DNA of 64,000 nucleotides from Mobula hypostoma (lineage: Eukaryota), in the NCBI RefSeq assembly GCF_963921235.1, contig NC_086097.1, positions 107,510,001 to 107,574,000 on the forward strand, written 5' to 3'. The translations under genes were made by a program, and so were the position numbers. Under the pieces are notes generated by a model that saw only the letters and a list, made by a program, of their open reading frames with translations, ran no database searches and was not told the origin of the DNA. This document shows, piece after piece, positions 8,373 to 52,601 of the stretch (position 1 is its first letter; every line of letters starts with the position of its first letter).

Positions 8373-11230
8373 TATCATAGAAAATAGGTGCAGGAGTAGG
8401 CCATTCGGCCCTTCGAGCCTGCACCGCCATTCAGTATGATCGTGGCTGATCATCCAACTCAGAACCCTGTACCAGCCTTCCCTCCATACCCCCGATCCCT
8501 TTAGCCACAAGGGCCATATCTAACTCCCTCTTAAATATAGCCAATGAATTGGCCTCAACTGATTCCTGTGGCAGAGAATTCCACAGATTCACCACTCTCT
8601 GTGTGAAGAAGTTTTTCCTAATCTCGGTCCTAAAAGGCTTCCCCTGTATCCTCAATCTGTGACCCCTTGTTCTGGACTTCCCCAACATCGGGAACAATCT
8701 TCCTGCATCCAGCCTGTCCAATCCCTTTAGGATTTTATACGTTTCAATCAGATCCCCGCCCTCAATCTTCTAAATTCCAGCGAGTATAAGCCTAGTTCAT
8801 CCAGTCTTTCATCATATGAAAGTCCTGCCATCCCAGGAATCGATCTGGTGAACCTTCTTTGTACTCCCTCTATGGCAAGGATGTCTTTCCTCAGATTAGG
8901 GGACCAAAACTGCACACAATACTCCAGGTGTGATCTCACCAAGGCCTTGTACAACTGCAGTAGTACCTCCCTGCTCCTGTACTCGAATCCTCTTGCTATA
9001 AATGCCAGCATACCATTAGCCTTTTTCACTGCCTGCTGTACCTGCATGCCCACTTTCAATGACTGGTGTATAATGACACCCAGGTCTTGTTGCACCTCCC
9101 CTTTTCCTAACCGGCCACCATTCAGGTAATAATCTGTTTTCCTGTTTTTGCCACCAAAGTGGATAACTTCACATTTATCCACATTAAATTGCATCTGCCA
9201 TGAATTTGCCCACTCACCTAAACTATCCAAGTCACCCTGCATCCTCTTTACATCCTCCTCACAGTTAACACTGCCGCCCAGCTTCGTGTCATCTGCAAAC
9301 TTGGAGATGCTGCATTTAATTCCCTCATCCAAGTCATTAATATATATTGTAAACAACTGGGGTCCCAACACTGAGCCTTGCGGTACCCCACTAGTCACTG
9401 CCTGCCATTCTGAAAAGGTCTCGTTTATTCCCACTCTTTGCTTCCTGTCTGCTAACCAATTCTCTATCCACATCAATACCTTACCCCCAATACCGTGTGC
9501 TTTAAGTTTGCACACTAATCTCCTGTGTGGGACCTTGTCAAAAGCCTTTTGAAAATCCAAATATACCACATCCACTGGTTCTCCGCTATCCACTCTACTA
9601 GTTACATCCTCAAAGAATTCTATGAGATTTGTCAGACATGATTTTCCTTTCACAAAGCCATGCTGACTTTGTCCAGTGATTTCACCGCTTTCCAAATGTG
9701 CTGTTATCACATCTTTGATAACTGACTCTAGCAGTTTCCCCACCACCGATGTTAGGCCAACCGGTCTATAATTCCCTGGTTTCTCTCTCCCTCCTTTTTT
9801 AAGAAGTGGGGTTACATTAGCCAACCTCCAATCCTCAGGAACTAATCCGGAATCTAAAGAGTTTTGAAAAATTATCACTAATGCATCCACTATTTCTTGG
9901 GCTACTTCCTTAAGCACTCTGGGATGCAGACCATCTGGCCCTGGGGATTTATCTGCCTTTAATCCCTTCAATTTACCGAACACCACTTCCCTACTAACAT
10001 GTATTTCCCTCAGTTCCTCCATCTCACTGGACCCTCTGTCCCCTACTATTTCCGGAAGATTATTTATGTCCGCCTTAGTGAAGACAGAACCAAAGTAATT
10101 ATTCAATTGGTCTGCCATGTCCTTGCTCCCCATAATCAATTCACCTGTTTCTGTCTGTAGGGGACCTACATTTGTCTTAACCAATCTTTTTCTTTTCACA
10201 TATCTGTAAAAGCTTTTACAGTCAGTTTTTATGTTCCCTGCCAGTTTTCTCTCATAATCTTTTTTCCCCTTCCTAATTAAGCCCTTTGTCCTCCTCTGCT
10301 GAACTCTGAATTTCTCCCAGTCCTCAGGTGGAGCCACTTTTTCTGGCTAATTTGTATGCTTCTTCTTTGGAATTGATACTATCCCTAATTTCCCTTGTCA
10401 GCCACGGGTGCACTACCTTGATTTATTCTTTTGCCAAACTGGGATGAGCAATTCTTGAAGTTCATCCATGCAACCTTTAAATGCTTGCCATTGCGTATCC
10501 ACCGTCAACCCTTTAAGTGTCATTTGCCAGTCTATCTTAGCTAATTCACGTCTCATACCTTCAAAGTTACCCTTCTTTAAGTTCAGAACCTTTGTTTCTG
10601 AATTAACTATGTCACTCTCCATCTTAATGAAGAATTCCACCATATTATGGTCACTCTTACCCAAGGGGCCTCTCACGACAAGATTGCTAATTAACCCTTC
10701 CTCATTGCTCAAAACCCAGTCTAGAATAGCCTGCTCTCTAGTTGGTTTCTCGACATGTTGGTTCAAAAAATCATCCCGCATACATTCCAAGAAATCCTCT
10801 TCCTCAGCGTCCTTACCAATTTGGTTCACCCAATCTACATGTAGATTGAAGTCACCCATTATAACTGCTGTTCCTTTATTGCACACATTTCTAATTTCCT
10901 GTTTAATACCACCCTCAACCTCACTACTACTGTTAGGTAGCCTGTACAGAACTCCCACCAGCGTTTTCTGCCCCTCAGTGTTATGCAGCTCTACCCATAT
11001 CGATTCCACATCTTCCCGGCTTATGTCCTTCCTTTCTATTGTGTTAATCTCCTCTCTAACCAGCAACGCCACCCCACCTCCTTTTCTTTCATGTCTATCC
11101 CTCCTGAATGTTGAATATCCCTGAATGTTGAGCTCCCATCCTTGGTCACCCTGGAGCCATGTCTCTGTGATCCCAACTATATCATATTCATTAATAACAA
11201 TCTGCACTTTTAATTCATCCACCTTGTTAG
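8373..11230 (-). mobile_element. CR1-type LINE, 5'-truncated, ORF2 (APE endonuclease + RT) with frameshifts
   Basis: ORFs 10413-11264 (ITETW, GDFN, SDH), 8748-10337 (KSPGPDG, DFQKAFD, GVPQGSVLGP, FADDTK) and 8431-8721; 3' UTR at 8373-8460. Confidence 0.95.
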
Positions 11231-12140: not shown

Positions 12141-12452
12141 CAGTGGTCCCCAACCTCCGGGCCGCGGACCGATACATTGCCGCGAAGAATGCAGCAGTGC
12201 AGCAGTGGCTGGGATGCACCCAGCACATCTTTAAGAAAAAAAACAAAATAAACAAGCTAATTAATTTGGTGCTGCCCGGCACGCAAATGTCGGCCCAGAT
12301 CAGCGGCAACACAATTGGCAATCGCCTCTGGCCTGGGCTGACATTTACGTGCAGGGTGGCACCTAATTAATTAGCTTGTTTATTTTGGCTTTTTTCTTAA
12401 AGATGTATCGCGGCAATGTATCGGTCCGCGGCCCGGAGGTTGGGAACCACTG
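12141..12452. mobile_element. hAT (Charlie-like) palindromic MITE
   Basis: Termini CAGTGGTCCCCAACC...GGTTGGGAACCACTG, long internal inverted repeats, flanking duplication of (TG)CTAGCT. Confidence 0.85.
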
Positions 12453-23464: not shown

Positions 23465-26400
23465 CAGCCCCCACGACCCCCCCCAGCCCCCACCACCCCC
23501 CAGCCCCCACGACCCCCCCAGCCCCCACGACCCCCCCAGCCCCCACCACCCCCCCAGCCCCTACGACCCCCCCAGCCCCTACGACCCCCCCAGCCCCCAC
23601 CACCCCCCCCAGCCCCCACCACCCCCCCAGCCCCCACGAACCCCCCCAGCCCCCACGAACCCCCCCAGCCCCCACCACCCCCCCCAGCCGCCACCACCCC
23701 CCCCAGCCCCCACCCCCCCCAGCCCCCACCACCCCCCCAGCCCCCACGACCCCCCCCAGCCCCCACGAACCCCCCCCAGCCCCCACGACCCCCCCAGCCC
23801 CCACGACCCCCCCCAGCCCCCACCACCCCCCCCAGCCCCCACCACCCCCCCAGCCCCCACGAACCCCCCCAGCCCCCACCACCCCCCCCAGCCCCCACGA
23901 CCTCCCCAGCCCCCACGACCCCCCCAGCCCCCACGAACCCCCCAGCCCCTACGACCCCCCCCAGCCCCCACCACCCCCCCAGCCCCCACGACCCCCCCAG
24001 CCCCCACGACCCCCCCAGCCCCTACGACCCCCCCCAGCCCCCACCACCCCCCCCAGCCCCCACCACCCCCCCAGCCCCCACCACCCCCCCCAGCCCCCAC
24101 GAACCCCCCCAGCCCCCACCACCCCCCCCAGCCCCCACGACCTCCCCAGCCCCCACGACCCCCCCAGCCCCTACGACCCCCCCCAGCCCCCACCACCCCC
24201 CCAGCCCCCACCACCCCCCCAGCCCCCACCACCCCCCCAGCCCCCACCACCCCCCCCAGCCCCTACGACCCCCCCCAGCCCCCACGACCCCCCCAGCCCC
24301 TACGACCCCCCCCAGCCCCTACGACCCCCCCCAGCCCCCACCACCCCCCCAGCCCCTACCACCCCCCCAGCCCCCACCACCCCCCCAGCCCCCACGAACC
24401 CCCCCCAGCCCCCACGAACCCCCCCAGCCCCCACGACCCCCCCAGCCCCCACGACCCCCCCCAGCCCCCACGACCCCCCCAGCCCCCACCACCCCCCCCA
24501 GCCCCCACCACCCCCCCCAGCCCCCACCACCCCCCCCAGCCCCCACGACCCCCCCAGCCCCCACGACCCCCCCAGCCCCCACGACCCCCCCAGCCCCTAC
24601 GACCCCCCCAGCCCCCACGAACCCCCCCAGCCCCTACGACCCCCCCAGCCCCCACCACCCCCCCAGCCCCTACGACCCCCCCCAGCCCCCACCACCCCCC
24701 CCAGCCCCTACGACCCCCCCAGCCCCCACGACCCCCTCCAGCCCCCACCACCCCCCCAGCCCCCACGACCCCCCCCAGCCCCCACCACCCCCCCCAGCCC
24801 CCACCACCCCCCCAGCCCCCACGAACCCCCCCAGCCCCCACGAACCCCCCCAGCCCCCACCACCCCCCCAGCCCCCACCACCCCCCCCCAGCCCCCACCC
24901 CCCCCAGCCCCCACCCCCCCCAGCCCCCACCACCCCCCCAGCCCCCACCACCCCCCCAGCCCCCACGACCCCCCCCAGCCCCCACCACCCCCCCAGCCCC
25001 CACCACCCCCCCAGCCCCCATGAACCCCCCCCAGCCCCCACGACCCCCCCAGCCCCCACGACCCCCCCAGCCCCCACGACCCCCCCAGCCCCCACGACCC
25101 CCCCAGCCCCCACCACCCCCCCAGCCCCCACGAACCCCCCCAGCCCCCACCACCCCCCCAAGCCCCCACGACCTCCCCAGCCCCCACGACCTCCCCAGCC
25201 CCCACGACCCCCCCAGCCCCCACGAACCCCCCAGCCCCTACGACCCCCCCCAGCCCCCACCACCCCCCCAGCCCCCACGACCCCCCCAGCCCCTACGACC
25301 CCCCCCAGCCCCCACCACCCCCCCCAGCCCCCACGACCCCCCCCAGCCCCCACCACCCCCCCAGCCCCCACCACCCCCCCAGCCCCCACCACCCCCCCAG
25401 CCCCCACCACCCCCCCAGCCCCCACCACCCCCCAGCCCCTACGACCCCCCCAGCCCCTACGACCCCCCCCAGCCCCCACCACCCCCCCAGCCCCTACGAC
25501 CCCCCCCAGCCCCCACCACCCCCCCAGCCCCCACGACCCCCCCCAGCCCCTACGACCCCCCCAGCCCCCACGACCCCCCCAGCCCCCACGACCCCCCCAG
25601 CCCCCACCACCCCCCCCAGCCCCCACCACCCCCCCAGCCCCCACCACCCCCCCCAGCCCCCACCACCCCCCCAGCCCCCACCACCCCCCCCAGCCCCCAC
25701 GACCCCCCCAGCCCCTACGACCCCCCCCAGCCCCCACGAACCCCCCCAGCCCCCACGACCCCCCCCAGCCCCCACCACCCCCCAGCCCCTACGACCCCCC
25801 CCAGCCCCCACCACTCCCCCAGCCCCTACGACCCCCCCAGCCCCCACGACCCCCCCAGCCCCCACCACCCCCCCAGCCCCCACCACCCCCCCAGCCCCCA
25901 CCACCCCCCCAGCCCCCACCACCCCCCCCAGCCCCCACGACCTCCCCAGCCCCCACGACCCCCCCAGCCCCTACGACCCCCCCCAGCCCCCACGACCCCC
26001 CCCAGCCCCCACCACCCCCCCAGCCCCCACCACCCCCCCCCCCCCCCCAGCCCCCACCACCCCCCCAGCCCCCACCACCCCCCCCAGCCCCTACGACCCC
26101 CCCCAGCCCCCACGACCCCCCCAGCCCCCACGACCCCCCCCAGCCCCTACGACCCCCCCCAGCCCCCACCACCCCCCCAGCCCCTACGACCCCCCCCAGC
26201 CCCCACGACCCCCCCAGCCCCCACGACCCCCCCAGCCCCCACGACCCCCCCCAGCCCCTACGACCCCCCCCAGCCCCCACCACCCCCCCAGCCCCTACGA
26301 CCCCCCCCAGCCCCCACCACCCCCCCAGCCCCCACGACCCCCCCCAGCCCCCACGACCCCCCCAGCCCCTACGACCCCCCCAGCCCCCACGACCCCCCCA

Positions 26401-27335
26401 GCCCCCACGACCCCCCCCAGCCCCCACCACCCCCCCAGCCCCCACCACCCCCCCCAGCCCCCACCACCCCCCCAGCCCCCACCACCCCCCCCAGCCCCCA
26501 CGACCCCCCCAGCCCCTACGACCCCCCCCAGCCCCCACGAACCCCCCCAGCCCCCACGACCCCCCCCAGCCCCCACCACCCCCCAGCCCCTACGACCCCC
26601 CCCAGCCCCCACCACCCCCCCAGCCCCTACGACCCCCCCCAGCCCCCACCACCCCCCCAGCCCCCACCACCCCCCCCAGCCCCCACGACCTCCCCAGCCC
26701 CCACGACCCCCCCAGCCCCTACGACCCCCCCCCAGCCCCCACGACCCCCCCCAGCCCCCACGACCCCCCCAGCCCCCACGACCCCCCCAGCCCCCACCAC
26801 CCCCCCCAGCCCCCACCACCCCCCCAGCCCCCACGACCCCCCCAGCCCCCACCACCCCCCCCAGCCCCCACGACCCCCCCCAGCCCCCACCACCCCCCCA
26901 GCCCCCACCACCCCCCCCAGCCCCCACGACCCCCCCCAGCCCCCACGACCCCCCAGCCCCCACGACCCCCCCAGCCCCTACGACCCCCCCCAGCCCCCAC
27001 CACCCCCCCAGCCCCCACCACCCCCCCCAGCCCCCACGACCCCCCCAGCCCCCACGACCCCCCCAGCCCCCACGACCCCCCCCAGCCCCTACGACCCCCC
27101 CCAGCCCCCACCACCCCCCCAGCCCCCACCACCCCCCCCAGCCCCACGACCCCCCCAGCCCCCACGAACCCCCCCAGCCCCCACGACCCCCCCCAGCCCC
27201 CACCACACCCCCAGCCCCTACGACCCCCCCAGCCCCCACCACCCCCCCCAGCCCCCACGACCCCCTCCAGCCCCCACGACCCCCTCCAGCCCCCACGACC
27301 CCCCCCAGCCCCCACCCCCCCCAGCCCCCACCACC
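23465..27335 (+). repeat. ~3.9 kb C-rich minisatellite, 18-21-bp unit CAGCCCC(C/T)AC(G/C)ACCCCCC(C)
   Basis: About 200 tandem units (length divided by unit size) with variable C-runs; ORFs in multiple frames on both strands. Confidence 0.97.
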
Positions 27336-30189: not shown

Positions 30190-32793
30190 ATCATGAGCAC
30201 TTGGTTGTTGTAGAGGCAATGCAAGGTTTTAAAAAAAAGCCCAGGGCTATTAGGAATTTTTCAGCAGGCTTCAATCATCAAGAGCATTTATTTCTCAGAG
30301 GGGAGGGGCAAGGTTTAAAAAGAGTTTAAGATGCTCTGGAACTTTTCAGTAGGCTTCAATCATTATTATCTATTCGGCACTTGGCAAAGGCAAATAAAAA
30401 AAAGTGAAGTGTAAGTAGAGTGACTGTTGCGTGAGTGGACCAGTGTTAGAGTGGTCAGTTTCGGACTTTGGTTCAAGAGGCTTGGGAGACAAAAGGCAAA
30501 GGCTCTGTTTCTATTAAGTTGTTTTTTTCTTCTTTCTCAATTAGTGCATAGGGAGTGCAGTGAGAATGGGTCCATGGTCAGTGGTTGTTCTTCAGGTGAG
30601 ATGTGGGAACTCTGGTAAACCACCAGTCTCCCTGAAAACTACATTTGCATGAGATGTGACCAACTGCAGCTCCTTACAAACAATATTAGGGAACTGGAGC
30701 TGCAGCTCACATGGGAGAATGAGGAGGTGGTAGATAAGAGCTACAGGGAGGTAGTCACCCCATGTTGCAGGAGGCAGGTGGCTGAGTGACTGTCATAAGA
30801 GGGAAAAAGAAAAGACATCCAGTGCAGAGTACCCCTGTGGCTGTTCCCCTCAAAAATAAGTACACCGTTTTGGGTACTGTTGAGGGGGTACCCTACTAGG
30901 GAAAAGCTACAATGACTGGCTCTCTGGCACTGAGTCTTGCCCTGTGGCTCAGAGGGGAAGGGAGGAGAAGAGGACTGCAGTAGTGATAGGGGATTCCATA
31001 CTTAGAAGAGCAGACAGAAGATTCTGTGGACATTTGCCTCCCAGGTTCCAGGGTCAAGGACCACAACATTCTAAATGAGGAGGATGAATAGCTGGAAGTC
31101 ATGGGACATATTGGTAAAAGTGACATTGGCAGGAAAAGGGATGCGGTCCTGAAGAGAGAATAAAGGGAATTAGGTGGAAATCTGAAAAGCAGGACCTCCA
31201 GAGTATTGCTGCCTGTGCCATGTCCCAGTGAGGGTAAACATAAGATAACCTGGCACATGAATATATGACTGAGAAATTTGCAGCTTTCAGATTTCTGAAT
31301 GATTGCAGTCTCTTCTCAGGAAGGGATGACCTGTACAAAAAGAATGGGTTATACACAAACTCAAGGGGAACCAATATTCCTGTAGGCAGTTTTGCTAGAG
31401 CTGTTGAGGAGGGTTTAAATTAATTTGGCAGGAGGATGGGAAACAGAATGACAGAGATGAGGATGGGGCAGTTGGTATACAATTAGATGTAGTGTGTAGT
31501 GAGGCAGTGAGGAAAGATGGGCAGATGATAGGGCAACATTGCAGTCAGTGGGATAAGTTAAAGTGTAACATGGGGGCAAAATCAAAATAGGTGATGAATA
31601 CAGGACCAAAGGTAATAAATTTGAATGCATGCATTATCCAGTGTTGGATTCTAATGTTTTGATCCAAGGTTCTTTCAGAACTCAGGAAAAAGGCAAAAAA
31701 CTTGTTGCTTCATGATCATTTTATTAAGAGTTGATGGGACAAGGAAAATTGAAACAAACTGTGATAGAGGTCTACTAACAAAAGAAAGAGGCCAGAAAAC
31801 TAGGGTGGTGCTGCTTTGTGGTCGGCTATCTTTTTTACTACAGAGAAAAGGAAAATTCCATTTAAATTTGTAGATAGAGTTAACCAATAAGAAAGCACTT
31901 ATTCAAATACTGAAGTACAAAGAAGCCTCTAGAGCTTTCCAGAATAATACTTTGTATAATATCTAGAGGCATGTTAAACTTGCATATACATAATATTATG
32001 ACCACGAGGAAGCATACTAGACAGTTATTTGTATACTGAAAGATTCAAAGTACATATATTATCAAAGTATGTATGCAGTATACAACTCTGAGATTCTTTA
32101 CCCACAGACAGTCACGAAAGAAAGAAGAACTTCTTAAAATAATAATTGTTGTAAATAATTAATTGTTGAACTGGAAAGAAAATATCAATTAAGCATTCTA
32201 ATCTAAGAATTAACAGAATAAGGTAAATGATATTCCAGTGCAATTAGACATTGGGAGGTGTGACAATATCATTGGAAGGCATCACTGAGTTGTGGCAAAA
32301 AGAAGAATATAGTTGAGAGCATAACATTGTATCAATATGACAGGCAGGTAGGCAGAGAGGGTGGGTGGCTCGGTGGGTAAAAGATGAAATCAAATCCTTT
32401 AAAAAAGGTGACATTAGATCAGAAGATGTAAAATCCTTATGGGCAGAGTTAAGAAACTGCAAGAATACAAAGACCCTAATGGGAGTTATACACTGGCCTC
32501 TGAACAGTAGCCAGGGTGTGAGTACAAATTACAATGGGAAATAGAAAAGGCATGCAATATTACGATAGTGGTGGGGGATTTCAATATACAGGTAGATTGG
32601 GAAAATCAGATTGGTGCTGGATCCCAGGAGATGGAATTTATAAAATGTCTATGAGTTGGCTTTTTAGAGCACCTTGTGGTTGAGCTCACTAGGGGAAAGG
32701 CAATTCTAGATTGAGAGTTGTGGAATGAATCAGGTTTGATTAGGGAGCTTAAGGTAAAGGAACTGTTAGAAGACGGTGATTAGAATATGTTAG
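30190..32793 (+). mobile_element. Degenerate CR1 5' portion (ORF1 remnant and start of EN), interrupted; resumes at 36400
   Basis: ORF1-like sequence 30565-31420 (CAGCTCCTTAC...GAACTGGAGCTGCAGCTC; GATGACCTGTACAAAAAG); EN remnant 32240-32793 including GGGGATTTCAAT. Confidence 0.75.
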
Positions 32794-32991
32794 TGGTCTA
32801 TCTGGCCTACAGTATAATAAGGGACTACTTTATGTTGTAGGGACACGTCGTCGCATGAGCTATTAGGCACATATCGATCTGTTCGTTTGTGCTGGGTTCA
32901 GTTTCTGCCAGTAAAGAACCATGAACCTTAGCTCCCATCTCCAGCATTTTTATTAATAGCATTGTTGTGTAACCAGGCCACAAACACAACA
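32794..32991 (+). repeat. 5' LTR (~200 bp), followed by PBS-like TGGGCGACGAGG
   Basis: TGGTCTATCTGGCCTACAG...CAGGCCACAAACACAACA; repeated at 36000-36399. Confidence 0.88.
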
Positions 32992-33312
32992 AATGGGCGA
33001 CGAGGTTAATGAACCTACATCGTATTGGAATGATAATGACACTCAGAGGAACAGCCCAAGAAGCGAGCTAAGGAAGCGGGAGCACAGACGGTATCAGGAA
33101 TGTCGAGAGACCAAGAGGCACAGTCGGAGCTGCAGCACGTCCAGGCGAGACCACAGCCGGCACTGAACTCCAGGGCTGGGGGTCTGCCTGCCCCAGAAGG
33201 GAGATAAAAAGGAGCAACACATGCACATCTAGACGAAGTGCACTCGTGACGCTAGCAAAAGGTTACGTGAGTCCAAAAAAAGGGAGAACAGGGCTAAATT
33301 AACGTAACAAAG

Positions 33313-34494
33313 ATGGCGATGACTGGAACCATCACAGCATTTGATAGCAGCATTGAAGACTGGGCAATTTACATTGAAAGAGTGGAGTTAGATTGTGATG
33401 CTAACGATGTTAATGATGAAAAGAAAGCCAGTATTTTACTTAATATTATGGGAGCAAAAACATATGGACTGCTACGGAGTTTGTTAATCTCTGAAAAGCC
33501 AGCTGACAAAATGTTCAAGCAAATAGTAGACACTCTCCAACAGCATTTTACAATCGGAATCAGAGCAAAAATGAAAGCATTTCTGAATATTGAGCTGGAT
33601 TGCACAAATTATCCAAACATTTGTCAATTTGGAGCAGGTCTATCGGACGCATTGAGGGACAGGTTAGTGTGTGGCAAGCGCTGTGAAACCACACAGAAGA
33701 AGCTTCTGTGTGAAAGGGACCTTACATTAGAGGAGGTGCTGAACATTGCAATATCAACGGAAACAGCCGCAAGGGGTGCTTCCAGGATACAACAAAAATC
33801 TCTGGAATATACCACAAATAAAATGCAACTGAACGGAAATGAAGGAAAGAAATGTTACCATTGTGGGAACAGGTCACATAACCCGGATGACTGTTGGATT
33901 AAAGACAAAGAATGCAGGAACTGTGGCAAACAGGGCCACATTGGCAGAGTATGCAAAGCTAGTCAACAGCAGAAAAAGGGCAAAATACAGAGAAACAAGA
34001 AACCCCAGAAAGGAAAATACAACAAGGTACACAAAATGAAAGAAGGCAGTTCTGATGAAAGCAGCTCTGACGAAAACGACTCCGACGAAAGTGAATTGTC
34101 TTGTTGGCAACTTCACAGCATGAAAGAGACAGATGATCGAAGAGTAATATGGATCACTCCACAAGTGGCGGGTGTGAGACTGAAAATGGAGTTGGACACA
34201 GGCTCAGCTTTAACAGTGATCCCTGTGCACAACTACAAATGACTGTTTTCGCATATACCTCTGAAACGAACTAAACTTCTACTAAAGACTTACACAGGAC
34301 AGAAAGTGCATCCCGAAGGCAAAATTAAAGTGGTAGTAACCTACGGAGATAAAACACAGCAACTGAACCTCTATGTACTGAAAAACGGAGGACTACTGTT
34401 GCTGGGACGTGAATGGCTCAGGAAAATCCAGTTGGATTGGCACACCATCAAGGCACTCGGTGTGTCGACAAAGGAGGGCAGCTCGGTGGGTAAG
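33313..34494 (+). pseudogene. Gypsy gag-protease, one in-frame TGA at 34240 plus a locally shifted segment near 33550-33620
   Basis: FDSSIEDWAIYIERVE, LRDRLVCG, two zinc knuckles (CYHCGNRSHNPDDC, CRNCGKQGHIGRVC), protease LKMELDTGSALTVI...LLGREWL. Confidence 0.9.
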
Positions 34495-35424
34495 ATGTCC
34501 GCAGCTCTCCTCTCACCAATTGCCGACTAATACAACAACGAGGAGGAGCTAGACAGTGTCGATGATGAGGACGAACGCAGTATCCGTGGCTGCGACTCAG
34601 ATGAAGATACAGAGGATGCAAGGAAGACAGATATTGCCAAAAAGCAGGATGATGAATACTACCTGGAAGTAAAAGAGCAGATGTACCAGGAGAAATTGAC
34701 ATCTCTCAAAAGACAGCTACAGCAGTTACAGGAAGGCACTTTGCAGGAATATCAGAAAAAGATGAAGAAACTAGATCAACAATACAAGGAAAGACTACGA
34801 AATGCAGAGCTTTTTCTGCAACTGGAGACAGAACAAGTGGAAAGGAATTATATTAAAGAGAAGAAAGCAGCAGTGAAGGAATTTGAAGATCAAAAGATAG
34901 AGTTAGAAGAAAAAGATGATTGAGAATGAGAGGCTAACAATGGAACTCACATGAGATTCTATGGCGGTAAAGCCAGTAACGACTAGGAAACTAAGGAGAA
35001 GACCTAATGACCCTGCTCCAATTACAGACAAAAGACGAAAACCTGCACCTACGCAGTTAAATTACTTGTTAACAGATGAACAGATAATGGAAGATCCGCA
35101 AACTCTGAATAAGCTTAAAATGCCGAAAAGACCAGCATCTCTGTCTCTCCTGAACATCTTCCCAGCACTCCTGCTGAATCACCAGCACAAAGATATGAAG
35201 CACGAATAGAAGCTGGAAAGTTATATTATGTTAAGAAATGGTATCATAAAGGTCAGGCTATCTATTTGGAATCTAAGGAGAATACGAAGATTGGCTGTGT
35301 AATTAGCTCAGTTGGAACAAATGAGATATGGGTAAGGAAGACAAATGATAGCACAAAGATGCGTATATATCTAGGACAGCGGCAAATAGGAATCTTCATT
35401 ATACAGAGACGATCTGCTGCCTAG
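34495..35424 (+). pseudogene. SUDS3: Processed (intronless) pseudogene of SIN3-HDAC corepressor subunit SDS3
   Basis: MSAALLSP...DEDTEDA...[73 protein letters not shown]...[11 protein letters not shown]...[14 protein letters not shown]...[17 protein letters not shown]...RRSAA*; colinear with recalled SUDS3 from start to stop; stops at 34528 and ~34952, frameshifts near 34905 and 35145. Confidence 0.95.
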
Positions 35425-35999
35425 AATTCTTAGCAAGTTGGAAGCGCACATCTCTTAACTTCCTATGCTCAGAGGTCAACTTTTCATGACCTTTATATGG
35501 AAATCTGTATTAAAACAAACAAGTTTATTGTCAGACTGAAGAACACACTATTTAAAGACACTTTTCAATGCCATCTCAGTTTTGATGATTGTACATATCT
35601 TTAAGAATAAGATTCACCTTTTCACGGATTTCACTTTGCTTTCGTCATCTTTGCAAGATGGAGGTGACTACTCTTTATGGCTGGAACCTGCCAATTTGAG
35701 GATTGTTCAATTTATTCCAGTCAATAGAGGGCAGACCTATTTGCTTCAGTGTCGGACAATCTAGAGAAGACACCCCCCTCCCCCCAAGACTTGAGTTATA
35801 AATGGGTCTTAGACCAAAAGTAAAAAAAAAAGGCTTGTTATAATTCGATATTATTACGTGACTTTGTTATAATTTGATATTATTAAGTTACTAAGTAAAC
35901 AAATGGTAGGCTTTTGTATGTTAAGGGTAGACATATTTGATTAGCATAGTGACCCAGTAAAAAAAAAGTTGATACACTATTAAAATAAAAGGGGAGGAG

Positions 36000-36399
36000 T
36001 GTACTGTATGGCCTACAGCAGTGGTCCCCAACCTCCAGGCCACGGACAGATACTGATCCGCGAAGCATGCAGTCTGATCTGGGCCAACATTTACGTGCCG
36101 CGCGACACCTAATTAATTAGCTTGTTTATTTCGGCTTTGTTCTTAAAGATGTGCGAGGTGCATTCCAGCTACCGCTGCACTCCTGCCTGCTTTGTGGATC
36201 GGTATCGGTCCGTGGCCCAGAGGTTGGGGACCACTGGCCTGCAGTATAATAAGGGTTGTTGCATGTGCTATTAGGCACGTATTGTTCTGTATGTGTGTGC
36301 CGAGTTCAGTTTCTGCCAGTAAAGAACCATGAACCTTAGCTCCTGTCTCCAGCATTTTTATTAATAGCATTATTGTGTGACCAGGCCACATACACAACA
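36000..36399 (+). repeat. 3' LTR (with MITE insertion), preceded by PPT AAAAGGGGAGGAG
   Basis: TGTACTGTATGGCCTACAG...CAGGCCACATACACAACA. Confidence 0.88.
36019..36236. mobile_element. hAT MITE inserted in the 3' LTR
   Basis: CAGTGGTCCCCAACC...GGTTGGGGACCACTG flanked by 8-bp TSD GCCTACAG/GCCTGCAG; absent from the 5' LTR. Confidence 0.9.
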
Positions 36400-37145
36400 G
36401 ATAGAATTCACCTTGCAGTTTGAGAGGGGAAGCAAGCCATGATCATAATAAATGGCGGTGCAGGCTCGAAGGGCTGAATGGCCTACTCCTGCACCTATTT
36501 TCTATGTTTCTATGTTTCTATCAGTATTACAATGGAGTAAAGGGAATTACAGAAGTGGAAGCTGGTCGAAGTTGATTGGAAGGGGACACTAGCAGCGATG
36601 ATGGCAGAATAACAATGGCAGGAATTTCTGGGAGAAATTTGGAAAGTGTAAGATAGATAAATCACAAAGATAAAGTAGTATTCTAAAGGGAGGCTGACGC
36701 AACCTTGGCTGACAAAGGTAGTCAAAGCATAAAAAGAAAAGAGAGGGCATTTAATACAGCTAAAATTAATGGAAAGTTAATTAATGGAGGACTAGGAAGC
36801 TTTTCAGAACTAACAGAAGGCAACTAAAAATGCAATAAGGATAGAATGGATGAAATATGAAGGTAAGCTTGTCAATAATATAAAAGATGATACCAACAGA
36901 TTTTTCAGATACACGAAGAGTAAATGAGTGTTGTGAGTAGCCATTGGACCACTGGAAAATGACGCTGGGGAGTTGATAATGAGGGGCAAAGAAATAGCGG
37001 CTGAATATCTTGTATTCGTCTTCACTGTGGAAAACACTAGCTTGAAATTCAAGAGGGTTGGGGGACAGTAGTGAGCATAGCTGCTATTACTAAGGCAAAA
37101 GTGCCTGGGAAGTTGGAATGTCTGAAGGTCGATAAGTCATCTAGA
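36400..37145 (+). mobile_element. Continuation of the degenerate CR1 ORF2
   Basis: ATAGAATTCACC resumes the EN end (NMIEF) interrupted at 32793; later GTTGATTGGAAGGGG...CAACCTTGGCTGACA. Confidence 0.75.
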
Positions 37146-48399: not shown

Positions 48400-51300
48400 T
48401 CGGCATTCAGAGAGGCGGGACTGTGCAGGCGTGTGACGTGGGGCAGTGAAGCTCGGAAGATTTAAAAGGAACAGAGCCTCATACAGTGGGCAGCGGAGTT
48501 TGTGGGTTGCAGAGTGAGCCAGGAGCAGAGTGAAGGCTTAAAGGCTTCGGCTCAACGGGCTTAGGTGGAAATGGGGGAGGCGAAGAGGGTTTGGTATTCA
48601 TTTTTTGTTGTTATTTGAGGAAAGGGGCAGTATGAGTGTGAGGGCAGCTTGTTGTTCTCGGTGTTGGATGTGGGAGGCCCTGGAGTCTCCAAGCATCCCG
48701 GACGTCCACATCTGCGCCAGGTGCGCTGAGATGCAGCTCCTAAGGGACCGCATTAGAGAACTGGAGCTGCAGCTCGATGACCTTTGCCTGGTCAGGGAGA
48801 GTGAGGAATTGACAGCGAGGAGTTACAGGCAGGTAGTCACACCGGGGCCACGGGAGGAAGACAAGTGGGTCACGGTTAGGAAGGGGAAGGATCAGGTACT
48901 AGAGAGTACCCCTGTGGCTGTGCCCCTTGACAATAAGTACTCCTGTTTGAGTACTGTTGGGGGGACAGCTTACCTGGGGGAAGCGACAGTGGCCATGCCT
49001 CCGACACAGAGTCCGACCCTATAGCTCAGAAGGGTAGGGAAAGGAAGAGGAGAGCAGTAATAATAGGGTACTCGATAGTAAGGGGGTCAGATAGGTGATT
49101 CTGTGGACGCAGTCCAGAGACCCGGGTGGTAGTTTGCCTCCCTGGTGCCAGGGTCCAGGATATTTCTGATTGCATCCAAGATATCCTGAAGTGGGAGGGT
49201 GAGGAGCCAGAGGTCGTGGTACATATAGGTACCAATGACGTAGGTAGGAAAAGGGAAGAGGTCCTGAAAGGAGAATATAGGGAGTTAGGAAGGGAGTTGA
49301 GAAAAAGGACTACAAAGGTAGTAATCTCGGGATTACTGCCTGTGCTACGCGACAGTGAGAGTAGGAATGCGATGAGGTGGAGGATAAATGCGTGGCTGAT
49401 GGATTGGAGCAGGGGGCAGGGATTCAAGTTTTTGGATCATTGGGACCTCTTTTGGCGCAGGTGTGACCTGTACAAAAAGGATGGGTTACACTTGAATCCT
49501 AGGGGGACCAATATCCTGGCGGGGAGATTTGCGAGGGCTACTGAGGTGACTTTAAACTAGAATGGTTGGGAGGTGGGAATCAAATTAAAGAGACTAGGAG
49601 AGAGGAGGTTAGTTCACAACAGGGGGATGGGAACAAGTGCAGAGAGACAGAGGGGTGTAAAATGAGGGTAGAAGTAAAAAGTAGTAAGGAGAAAAGTAAA
49701 AGTGACAGGCTGGCAAATCCAGGGCAAAAATCAAAAAGGGCCACTTTTCAACATAATTGTATAAGGGCTAGGAGTGTTGTAAAAGCAAGCCTGAAGGCTT
49801 TGTGTGTCAATGCAAGGAGCATTCGTAACAAGGTGGATGAATTAAAACTGCAGATTGTTATTAATGAATATGATGTAGTTGGGATCAGAGAGACATGGCT
49901 CCAGGGTTACCAAGGATGAGAGCTCGACATTCAGGGATGTTCAATATTCAGGAGGAATAGACATGAAAGAAAAGGAGGTGGGGTAGCATTGCTGGTTAGA
50001 GAGGAGATTAACGCAATAGAAAGGAAGGACATTAGCCGGGAGGATGTGGAATCGATATGGGTAGAGCTGCATAACACTAAGGGGCAGAAAATGCTGGTGG
50101 GAATTGTGTATAGGCCACCTAACAGTAGTAGTGAGGTTGGGGATGGCATTAAACAGGAAACTAGAAATGCGTGAAATAAAGGAACAGCAGTTATAATGAG
50201 TGACTTCAATCTACGTATAGATTGGGTGAACCAAATTGGTAAGGGTGCTGAGGAAGAGGATATCTTGGAACGTTTGCGGGATGGTTTTTTTGAAGCAACA
50301 TGTCGAGGAACCAACTAGAGAGCAGGCTATTCTAGACTGGGTATTGAGTAATGAGGAAGGGTTAATTAGCAATCTTGTCATGAGAGGCCCCTTGGGTAAG
50401 AGTGACCATAATATGGTGGAATTCTTCATTAAGATGGAGAGTGACATAGTTAATTCAGAAACAAAGGTTCTGAACTTAAAGAAGGGTAACTTTGAAGGTA
50501 TGAGATGTGAATTAGCTAAGGTAGACTGGCAAATGATACTTAAAGGGTTGACGGTGGATGTGCAATGGCAAGCATTTAAAGATCGCATGGATGAACTACA
50601 ACAATTGTTCATCCCAGTTTGGCAAAAGAATAAATTAGGGAAGGTAGTGCACCCGTGGCTGACAAGAGAAATTAGGGATAGTATCAATTCCAAAGAAGAA
50701 GCATACAAATTAGCCAGAAAAAGCGGCTCACCTGAGGACTGGGAGAAATTCAGAGTCCAGCAGAGGAGGACAAAGAGCTTAATTAGGAAAGGGAAAAAAG
50801 ATTATGAGAGAAAACTGGCAGGGAACATAAAAACTGACTGTAAAAGCTTTTGTAGATATGTGAAAAGAAAAAGATTGGTTAAGACAAATGTAGGTCCCCT
50901 ACAGACAGAAACGGGTGAATTGATTATGGGGAACAAGGACATGGCCGACCAACTGAATAATTACTTTGGTTCTGTCTTCACTAAGGAGGACATAAATAAT
51001 CTTCCGGAAATAGTAGGGGACAGATGGTCCGATGAGATGGAGGAACTGAGGGAAATACATGTTAGTAGGGAAGTGGTGTTAGGTAAATTGAAGGGATTAA
51101 AGGCAGATAAATCCCCAGGGCCAGATGGTCTGCATCCCAGAGTGCTTAAGGAAGTAGCCCAAGAAATAGTGGATGCATTAGTGATAATTTTTCAAAACTC
51201 TTTAGATTCTGGACTAGTTCCTGAGGATTGGAGGGTGGCTAATGTAACCCCGCTTTTTAATAAAGGAGGGAGAGAGAAACTGGGGAATTTTAGACCGGTT

Positions 51301-52601
51301 AGCCTAACATTGGTGGTGGGGAAAATGCTGGAGTCAGTTATCAAAGATGTGATAACAGCACATTTGGAAAGCGGTGAAATCATTGGACAAAGTCAACATG
51401 GCTTTGTGAAAGGAAAATCATGTCTGACGAATCTAACAGAATTTTTTGAGGATGTAACTAGTAGAGTCCATAGGGGAGAACCAGTGGATGTGGTATATTT
51501 GGATTTTCAAAAGGCTTTTGACGCACAAGAGATTAGAATGCAAACTTAAAGCACATGGTATTGGGGGTAAGGTATTGATGTGGATAGAGAATTGGTTGGC
51601 AGACAGGAAGCAAAGACTGGGAATAAACGGGACCTTTTCAGAATGGCAGGCAGTGACTAGTGGGGTACCGCAAGGCTCAGTGCTAGGACCCCAGTTGTTT
51701 ACAATATATATTAATGACTTAGACAAGGGAATTAAATGCAGCATCTCCAAGTTTGCGGATGGCATGAAGCTGGGCGGTAGTGTTAGCTGTGAGGAGGATG
51801 CTAAGAGGATGCAGGGTGACCAGGTTAGGTGAGTGGGCAAATTCATGGCAGCTGCAATTTAATGTGAATAAATGTGAGGTTATCCACTTTGGTGGCAAAA
51901 ACAGGAAAACAGATTATTATCTGAATGGTGGCCGATTAGGAAAAGGGGAGGTGCAACGAGATCTGGGTGTCATTATACACCAGTCATTGAAAGTGGGCAT
52001 GCAGGTACAGCAGGCGGTGAAAAAGGCGAATGGTATGCTGGCATTTATAGCGAGAGGATTCGAGTACAGGAGCAGGGAGGTACTACTGCAGTTGTACAAG
52101 GCCTTGGTGAGACCACACCTGGAGTATTGTATGCAGTTTTCGTCCCCTAATCTGAGGAAAGACATTCTTGCTATAGAGGGAGTACAAAGAAGGTTCACCA
52201 GATTGATTCCTGGGATGGCAGGACTTTTATATGATGAAAGACTGGATCGACTAGGCTTATACTCGCTGGAATTTAGAAGATTGAAGGGGGATCTTATTGA
52301 AACGTATAAAATCCTAAAGGGATTGGACAGGCTAGAAGCAGGAAGATTGATCCTGATGTTGGGGAAGTCCAGAATGAGGGGTCACAGTTTGAGGATAAAG
52401 GGGAAGCCTTTTAGGACCGAGATTAGGAAAAACTTCTTCATACAGAGAGTGGTGAATCTGTGGAATTCTCTGCCACAGGAAACAGTTGAGGCCAGTTCAT
52501 TGGCTATATTTAAGAGGGAATTAGATATGGCCCTTGTGACTGAAGGGATCAGGGGGTATGGAGGGAAGGCTGGTACAGGGTTCTGAGTTGGATGATCAGC
52601 C
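48400..52601 (+). mobile_element. Near full-length CR1-type LINE (5' UTR, ORF1 zinc finger + SGNH esterase, ORF2 EN-RT), disrupted
   Basis: ORF1 pieces 48632-49560 (CSRCWMWE..HICARC, HIGTND, DGLH); ORF2 pieces 49790-52586; very similar to the copy at 8373-11230. Confidence 0.95.

Follow-up and report, generated by a model that had tools for sequence, protein, structure and literature searches.

A spliced SUDS3 coding sequence in frame with gag and protease in a several-hundred-copy Ty3/Gypsy family of a ray genome

Acutely transforming retroviruses carry gag-onc fusions, in which host cDNA is joined in frame with gag, and are replication-defective and helper-dependent. Capture of host transcripts by LTR elements was described by Tan et al. 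2016 (PMC5131818), whose account of LTR-mediated retrocopies reports template switching with a median microsimilarity of 6 bp. In Drosophila, telomeric TEs of the non-LTR type are described as having captured 140-235 bp fragments of nxf2, piwi or aub, with piRNA evidence (PMC13534243). A preprint (10.64898/2026.06.26.734816) lists SUDS3 among the top cartilaginous-fish retrocopy parents, and its main account explains the rankings by non-LTR machinery and selection. MIPOL1, SDF2L1, SLU7 and ZNF276 are other top parents in that list, and may be element-borne families too. Literature searches found no description of the element analyzed here, and the supplements of the preprint might contain per-species SUDS3 counts.

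The DNA analyzed here (the window) is a stretch of 64,000 nucleotides from Mobula hypostoma (contig NC_086097.1, positions 107,510,001 to 107,574,000). It contains a Ty3/Gypsy LTR element on the + strand at 32794-36399, in the order gag, protease, intronless SUDS3 CDS (Table 1). The hallmarks of an autonomous Ty3/Gypsy element, i.e. TG..CA LTRs, PBS, PPT and a short target duplication, are present, and LTR lengths across the family are 184-250 nt. The element resembles the 'K02A2.6-like' Ty3/Gypsy single-ORF elements of fishes and invertebrates (P0122-P0174) in its LTRs, PBS, PPT, 5-bp duplication, two-knuckle gag and protease, but carries SUDS3 in place of RT, RNase H and integrase. Pfam domains along the fused frame are, in order, zf-CCHC, gag-asp_proteas and Sds3; the PF13975 match on the X-read-through (E value 1.7e-4) falls short of the curated cut-off. 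Domain search and comparison with RT-bearing relatives revealed no RT-RH-IN beyond the protease in the window element. There is no env ORF and no room for one between its LTRs, and the backbone is that of a Gypsy Gag-Pol. The MITE in the 3' LTR, presumably of hAT type, has a relative in the window, an inverted copy at 12141-12303.

Table 1. Features of the SUDS3-bearing element (window coordinates)
Feature	Position	Strand	Evidence or remark
Left target-site duplication copy, 5 bp	32789..32793	.	1 mismatch vs right copy
5' LTR, TG...CA, 198 nt	32794..32991	+	direct repeat 32847-32994 / 36255-36402, 89%
PBS-like motif directly 3' of 5' LTR	32992..33005	+	seen in 14/15 chimeric copies, 2/2 donors
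Ty3/Gypsy gag, two CCHC knuckles (33853-33894, 33913-33954)	33313..34161	+	56% identity to Gag-Pol P0122, 417 aligned residues
Private compensated gag frameshift (40-nt loss, 1-nt gain)	33545..33620	+	stretch aligns poorly with P0122
Aspartic protease (PR), DTG 34195-34203, stop 34240-34242 inside	34162..34422	+	PF13975 on X-read-through
5' switch point, 7-nt microhomology between donor PR-RT linker and SUDS3 5'UTR	34476..34482	+	donor and host comparison
SUDS3 5'UTR remnant, 12 nt = 4 codons, brings SUDS3 ATG into gag-PR frame	34483..34494	+	
Spliced SUDS3 CDS, all 12 host exons, without introns	34495..35424	+	native stop 35422-35424
Captured SUDS3 3'UTR, truncated, without poly-A	35425..35762	+	92% to host last exon
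Donor-derived pol 3' end and untranslated region	35763..35986	+	matches RT-bearing relatives
Polypurine tract	35987..35999	+	sequence; served to locate 3' LTRs
3' LTR, interrupted by later MITE	36000..36399	+	K=0.133 to 5' LTR
MITE, 218 nt, 54-nt terminal inverted repeats, in 3' LTR	36019..36236	.	8-bp target duplication 36011-36018 / 36237-36244
Right target-site duplication copy, 5 bp	36400..36404	.	sequence

A preliminary description of the locus had placed ORFs starting at 33313, 34306 and 34681 in a common frame, with only two stops intervening. Read-through of stops as X bore out the common frame, which also includes the SUDS3 ATG at 34495, and revealed only two stops before 34921 (X310, TGA 34240; X406, TAA 34528). 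However, the window copy carries four further indels. Its gag has lost 40 nt after 33544 and gained 1 nt at 33620, leaving ~25 codons off-frame, while its SUDS3 lacks 1 nt at 35145 and contains a private 5-nt deletion at ~34906, as a result of which the ORF ends at 34923. SUDS3 itself does not end at 34923, as first described, but continues to its native stop and through ~340 nt of 3'UTR. The window element is a decayed copy.

The family-wide frame was counted over the majority-occupied columns of 30 copies. The distances from the gag ATG to the DTG, the SUDS3 ATG and the SUDS3 native stop are 906, 1206 and 2139 columns, all multiples of three, and 714 codon columns extend from the gag ATG to the native stop. 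Apart from the end, column 318 (window 34240) is the one place where the majority codon is a stop, and the junction shows neither stop nor frameshift in the majority columns. These counts suggest that the progenitor carried a single open Gag-PR-SUDS3 frame, as had been proposed. The junction spacing of 48 nt is unchanged in 82 of the 93 copies measured. TAA 34528 is private (1/105 copies), whereas the column of TGA 34240 is a stop in 40/94 chimeric copies (16/29 and 24/65). We rejected this stop as a subfamily trait, because it is scattered on the tree, lies in a column of the CpG hot-spot type, and occurs in 9/20 RT-bearing copies as well. The protease residues D, T and G are retained in 87/95, 90/96 and 91/96 copies, respectively. 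A stop-free stretch of 690 codons was found in none of 63 well-covered copies, the longest being 560. Because the junction has a single origin, the caveat that a chance join is in frame one time in three stands despite the many copies.

To establish the extent of the family, the 3.48 Gb genome was searched. A DNA query (34200-35000) gave 934 first-look candidates, of which 40 were scored; the 39 besides the window itself all cross the junction, with 90-92% identity, and 30 of these served for the frame alignment. An exon-6 protein query returned the host SUDS3 gene and 149 other matches, from which 80 loci were taken. Although these loci were chosen for SUDS3 regardless of their flanks, the PR-SUDS3 junction is bridged in a single alignment at 71 of them. 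Exact-pattern junction matches numbered 191 for the chimeric type and 102 for the RT type, and calibration (35/80 and 11/20) gave rough estimates of ~440 chimeric versus ~185 RT-bearing copies. The element is not a single-copy locus. The excess of chimeras over RT-bearing relatives (~2:1) could reflect an advantage, or just a shorter element.

The 5-bp target duplications are perfect in 11 of 15 measurable copies and have one mismatch in 2 more; they differ between copies, indicating independent integrations. LTR pairs were measurable in 15/80 chimeric and 2/20 donor copies, with a median K of 0.115 for the chimeric pairs, against 0.133 for the window copy. Divergence from the commonest base of each column has a median of 4.3% (109 copies), and the copy tree is star-like. 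The amplification is an old burst and, given the slow substitution rates of elasmobranchs, tens of millions of years in age. The deleted SUDS3 form typical of the family (see below) is present in sequencing runs of two further organisms (C and E), with summed depths in thousands. Rays (Mobula, Pristis, Hemitrygon) supply the nearest named SUDS3 proteins. The 8-residue deletion of the family is present in 6/6 proteins annotated as 'SDS3-like' from two Mobula species, and in 0/4 of the proteins compared that are annotated as plain 'SDS3'. No annotated Gag-PR-SUDS3 protein occurs among the best 120 of 601 longer SUDS3 matches, nor among 53 gag-PR matches, which is weak evidence.

Twenty RT-bearing relatives from the same genome were taken for comparison, with ~80-89% nucleotide identity to the chimeras over LTR-gag-PR. 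Donor identity stops at 34482 in 12/12 cases, within the PR-RT linker, and donor sequence returns at 35763, with RT-RH-IN in between in the donors. Pol has therefore been replaced rather than interrupted between the two LTRs, and SUDS3 sits where RT begins, in agreement with the preliminary description. The 7-nt microhomology at the 5' junction is shared with the host SUDS3 5'UTR (chance of at least 7 nt, 0.07%), and points to template switching as the probable origin of the chimera. No microhomology was found at the 3' junction of the long-UTR form, to which the window copy belongs. A short-UTR subfamily (36/110 copies by motif) contains letters of the donors that the long-UTR form does not have, joined at another 7-nt microhomology. 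Both alleles of 41/59 common gag-PR polymorphisms are found among the 20 RT-bearing copies, and the RT-bearing donors are interspersed with chimeras on the tree.

The family thus shares with the LTR-mediated retrocopies, as characterized in PMC5131818, an intronless copy of a spliced mRNA that replaces the internal ORF between both LTRs, and microsimilarity at switch points (median 6 bp in that study, 7 nt at the 5' and short-UTR 3' junctions here, none at the long-UTR 3' junction). It also shares secondary non-autonomous retroposition with common switch points (191 exact junctions), and the formation of multi-gene chimeras, here by addition of RNF213. It differs from the cases that paper describes in its hundreds of copies, compared with 1-5 for Bs1, in having a full-length CDS in frame with gag-protease, in being shared by several organisms, and in its subfamilies, which show later deletions, recombination with helpers and a second capture. 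The mechanism is already known from Tan et al. 2016, while what is unusual is the scale, together with a cargo that is full-length and in frame. In comparison with the Drosophila elements of PMC13534243, the likeness lies in carrying a piece of a silencing-related host gene and in being commoner than non-capture relatives, as reported there, and the difference in carrying a whole CDS within an LTR element. The gag-onc-like architecture of a helper-dependent transducing element, suggested earlier, is borne out by the frame, the donors and the traces of recombination. Like the gag-onc retroviruses, the element has a host ORF in frame with gag and appears helper-dependent; unlike them, it is a retrotransposon with no env between its LTRs, spread in the germ line, and shows no sign of cargo selection.

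The host SUDS3 gene (G000:C78:8439639-8380638(-), 12 exons) was found by the exon-6 protein query; a splice-site pattern search for it gave no match. All 12 exons are contiguous in the window. Host intron 7 (G000:C78:8398853-8395737, L043), which we take to be a minor-spliceosome intron, has AT-AC ends with a ATATCCTT donor, and is cleanly absent from the copies. A 24-nt in-frame deletion near 34899 is present in 108/110 copies and removes 8 coiled-coil residues (match to 4zqa over host residues 80-163); 5 copies lack 19 further residues near the SUDS3 N-terminus. The two large shared deletions each preserve the frame. This was set aside as proof of selection, because short repeats in the CDS tend in any case to be spaced in frame (the 24-nt deletion sits on a 6-nt repeat, and 16/27 such repeats are spaced in frame). 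The sole copy without a clean 24-nt gap (L102, G000:C58:4447155-4451655) has ~18 divergent letters at this place, which seem to stem from a local duplication and not from host sequence that was kept. Host residues 195-219 match PDB 2n2h, presumably the Sin3-interaction segment, and the Tudor domain matches 7sxi.

In 32/110 copies, SUDS3 is cut at CDS 677-699 by an antisense piece of RNF213 (E values 3e-20 and 5e-16 to PDB chains), before the Tudor domain and after the 2n2h segment and coiled coil. This capture comprises ~950 nt of the RING region (L003:2437-3389 and 31 other copies), occurs either as an insertion (8 copies) or as a replacement, and gave 156 first-look candidates genome-wide. 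No other shared cargo was found among the 110 copies. RNF213 is not known as a chromatin-silencing gene, and its presence as second cargo suggests opportunistic capture. Retention of the frame as protection against nonsense-mediated decay is disfavoured, since the RNF213 subfamilies stop 14-73 codons past host residue 217, yet multiplied.

The host gene differs from the commonest base of the copies at 15 columns, 12 synonymous and 3 non-synonymous. This contrast was rejected as a sign of purifying selection, because polarisation assigns 10 of the 12 synonymous differences to the host lineage. For polarisation, SUDS3 contigs of a further organism (D) were aligned on copy L025, with sites 787, 795, 802 and 816 read off per-record mismatch counts instead of listed rows. 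The element stem carries 2 non-synonymous changes (CDS 559, 787), no more than 2 synonymous changes (at 93 and at either 795 or 802) and the 24-nt deletion; the synonymous count is an upper bound, as organism D may carry the family itself and so serves as another host lineage, not as a clean outgroup. By itself, the stem (2N:2S) rejects neither purifying selection nor neutrality (p=0.24). The host lineages show 0N:10S in the source genome and 0N:7S in organism D, together 0:17, and hence no accelerated change in the captured region, with the qualification that the whole CDS was captured and leaves no coding control.

Variants shared among copies were counted at non-CpG sites in at least 8 copies, leaving out exon 6, on which the 80 loci had been chosen. 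Shared SUDS3 variants are 10N:1S, or 7N:0S without four sites adjoining the RNF213 junction. The dN/dS comparison proposed earlier for captured SUDS3 was run as N:S counts. Stem and shared changes together are 9:2 (12:3 with the junction-near sites), which matches the rare-variant baseline of 725:223 (3.25:1, p=1.0) and differs from the host lineages (p=8e-6). The power of this test is low, with 11-15 informative changes, and variants found in 8-10 copies may have arisen repeatedly instead of by descent. Change in SUDS3 on the element is thus neutral-like, and at this low power no selection on the SUDS3 protein is apparent in the sequences of 110 copies. Shared gag-PR variants, in contrast, are 29N:30S against a baseline of 1052:326 (p=1e-5), a purifying signal; the difference between SUDS3 and gag-PR is borderline (p=0.055, or p=0.042 with 12:3). 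The gag-PR signal remains in the 18 variants that donors hardly ever carry (7:11), although a sample of 20 donors is too small to attribute it to the chimera.

We consider it fairly probable that this is a non-autonomous Ty3/Gypsy family in which spliced full-length SUDS3 replaced RT-RNaseH-integrase in frame through a template switch, and which was multiplied by the enzymes of its relatives with SUDS3 as an unselected passenger. The chimera likely originated when reverse transcription switched onto co-packaged SUDS3 mRNA, and the enzymes of RT-bearing relatives likely mobilised it in trans to its present copy number. SUDS3 would have been carried along without selection, and any translation of the progenitor RNA would have yielded a Gag-PR-SUDS3 polyprotein as a by-product. 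That the join is in frame would be a one-in-three outcome, tolerated because Gag and protease remain whole. An origin as LINE-made SUDS3 pseudogenes landing in LTR elements, or as segmental or assembly duplications, could draw on the link between vertebrate retrocopies and non-LTR machinery made in the preprint 10.64898/2026.06.26.734816, in which SUDS3 is listed as a top parent. It is nevertheless refuted by the shared junction (71/80 loci) and by LTR-type 5-bp duplications that flank the LTRs. In addition, pol is replaced and not interrupted, there is no poly-A, the copies lie on many contigs at ~4.3% from the column mode, and the family also occurs in runs of other organisms, making such an origin exceedingly improbable.

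The earlier suggestion that the protease releases a SUDS3 variant, which poisons SIN3-HDAC assembly, relieves silencing and places the in-frame form under selection, appears to us distinctly unlikely. Sds3 is described as dimerising through its coiled coil and binding Sin3 and HDAC directly (PMC8800102), and a decoy would fit the frame kept whole over 714 codon columns, the mostly retained protease motif, the purifying signal in gag-PR, the in-frame SUDS3 deletions, RNF213 breaks that leave the coiled coil and 2n2h segment, and the greater number of chimeras than helpers; a dominant-negative, moreover, need not appear conserved. Against it, SUDS3 lacks a synonymous excess, at the low power noted above, 108/110 copies have the coiled-coil deletion, and copies cut by RNF213 multiplied. 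The gag-PR signal may stem from helpers via recombination (41/59 shared), deletions in the CDS are biased to in-frame, no cleavage site for the putative release of SUDS3 was identified, and none of the 63 well-covered copies retains 690 open codons (maximum 560). We also reason that a benefit in trans would aid helpers equally, and so would not select the chimera. Neutral protein evolution would instead be expected if the cargo acted at the RNA level, with SUDS3, and later antisense RNF213, making small-RNA silencing costly for the host or turning it on SUDS3 mRNA, so that the frame is irrelevant; TART-nxf2 of Drosophila is the precedent for such counter-silencing. This possibility accords with a cargo that encodes a chromatin co-repressor subunit, with the ~2:1 excess of chimeras (capture families are likewise reported as higher-copy in Drosophila, PMC13534243), and with copies 90-92% identical to each other, near the reported targeting range. 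It is nonetheless unlikely, as the captured region of host SUDS3 has not evolved fast (10 and 7 synonymous changes, none in amino acids), and the nature of RNF213 suggests opportunism. More broadly, a ray LTR element may have outbred its autonomous parent ~2:1 by using an in-frame SIN3-HDAC subunit, either as a dominant-negative (shortened coiled coil, Sin3-binding segment kept, Tudor later dispensable) or as a small-RNA trigger; we regard this speculation as rather doubtful. The passenger reading remains the one we prefer.

An LTR-captured host gene has here grown into a several-hundred-copy non-autonomous vertebrate family with a gag-onc-like in-frame fusion, and the family shows repeated helper recombination plus a second capture. 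One capture amplified by an LTR element, rather than many selection-filtered LINE events, would be a simpler cause for the SUDS3 retrocopy ranking. The hundreds of dated copies make selection on cargo directly testable.

Several minor observations concern the junction and the remainder of the window. At gag-PR codon column 394 (~34468), chimeras (95%) and donors (95%) are fixed for different amino acids; this position lies in the linker a few codons 5' of the junction, and the difference could affect cleavage. Two records from runs guessed to be RNA (X16 record 13 and X20 record 19) bridge the junction, but were set aside as expression evidence, the former because its patchy, peaked cover resembles reduced-representation DNA, and the latter because its contig has host alleles and could have been merged in assembly. 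The X20 record, a contig of organism D, joins the protease linker to SUDS3 with the 24 nt kept and with D host alleles, which may reflect a merge in assembly, gene conversion or a form older than the deletion. In run X18 of organism D, a joint (34126-34625) connects gag straight to SUDS3 with an 8-nt match. Elsewhere in the window, a long repeat is present in two inverted copies (8489-11229 and 49826-52555, 92-95% identity), and 23465-27335 is occupied by a GC-rich 18/37-bp minisatellite of ~211 units with 90% matches.
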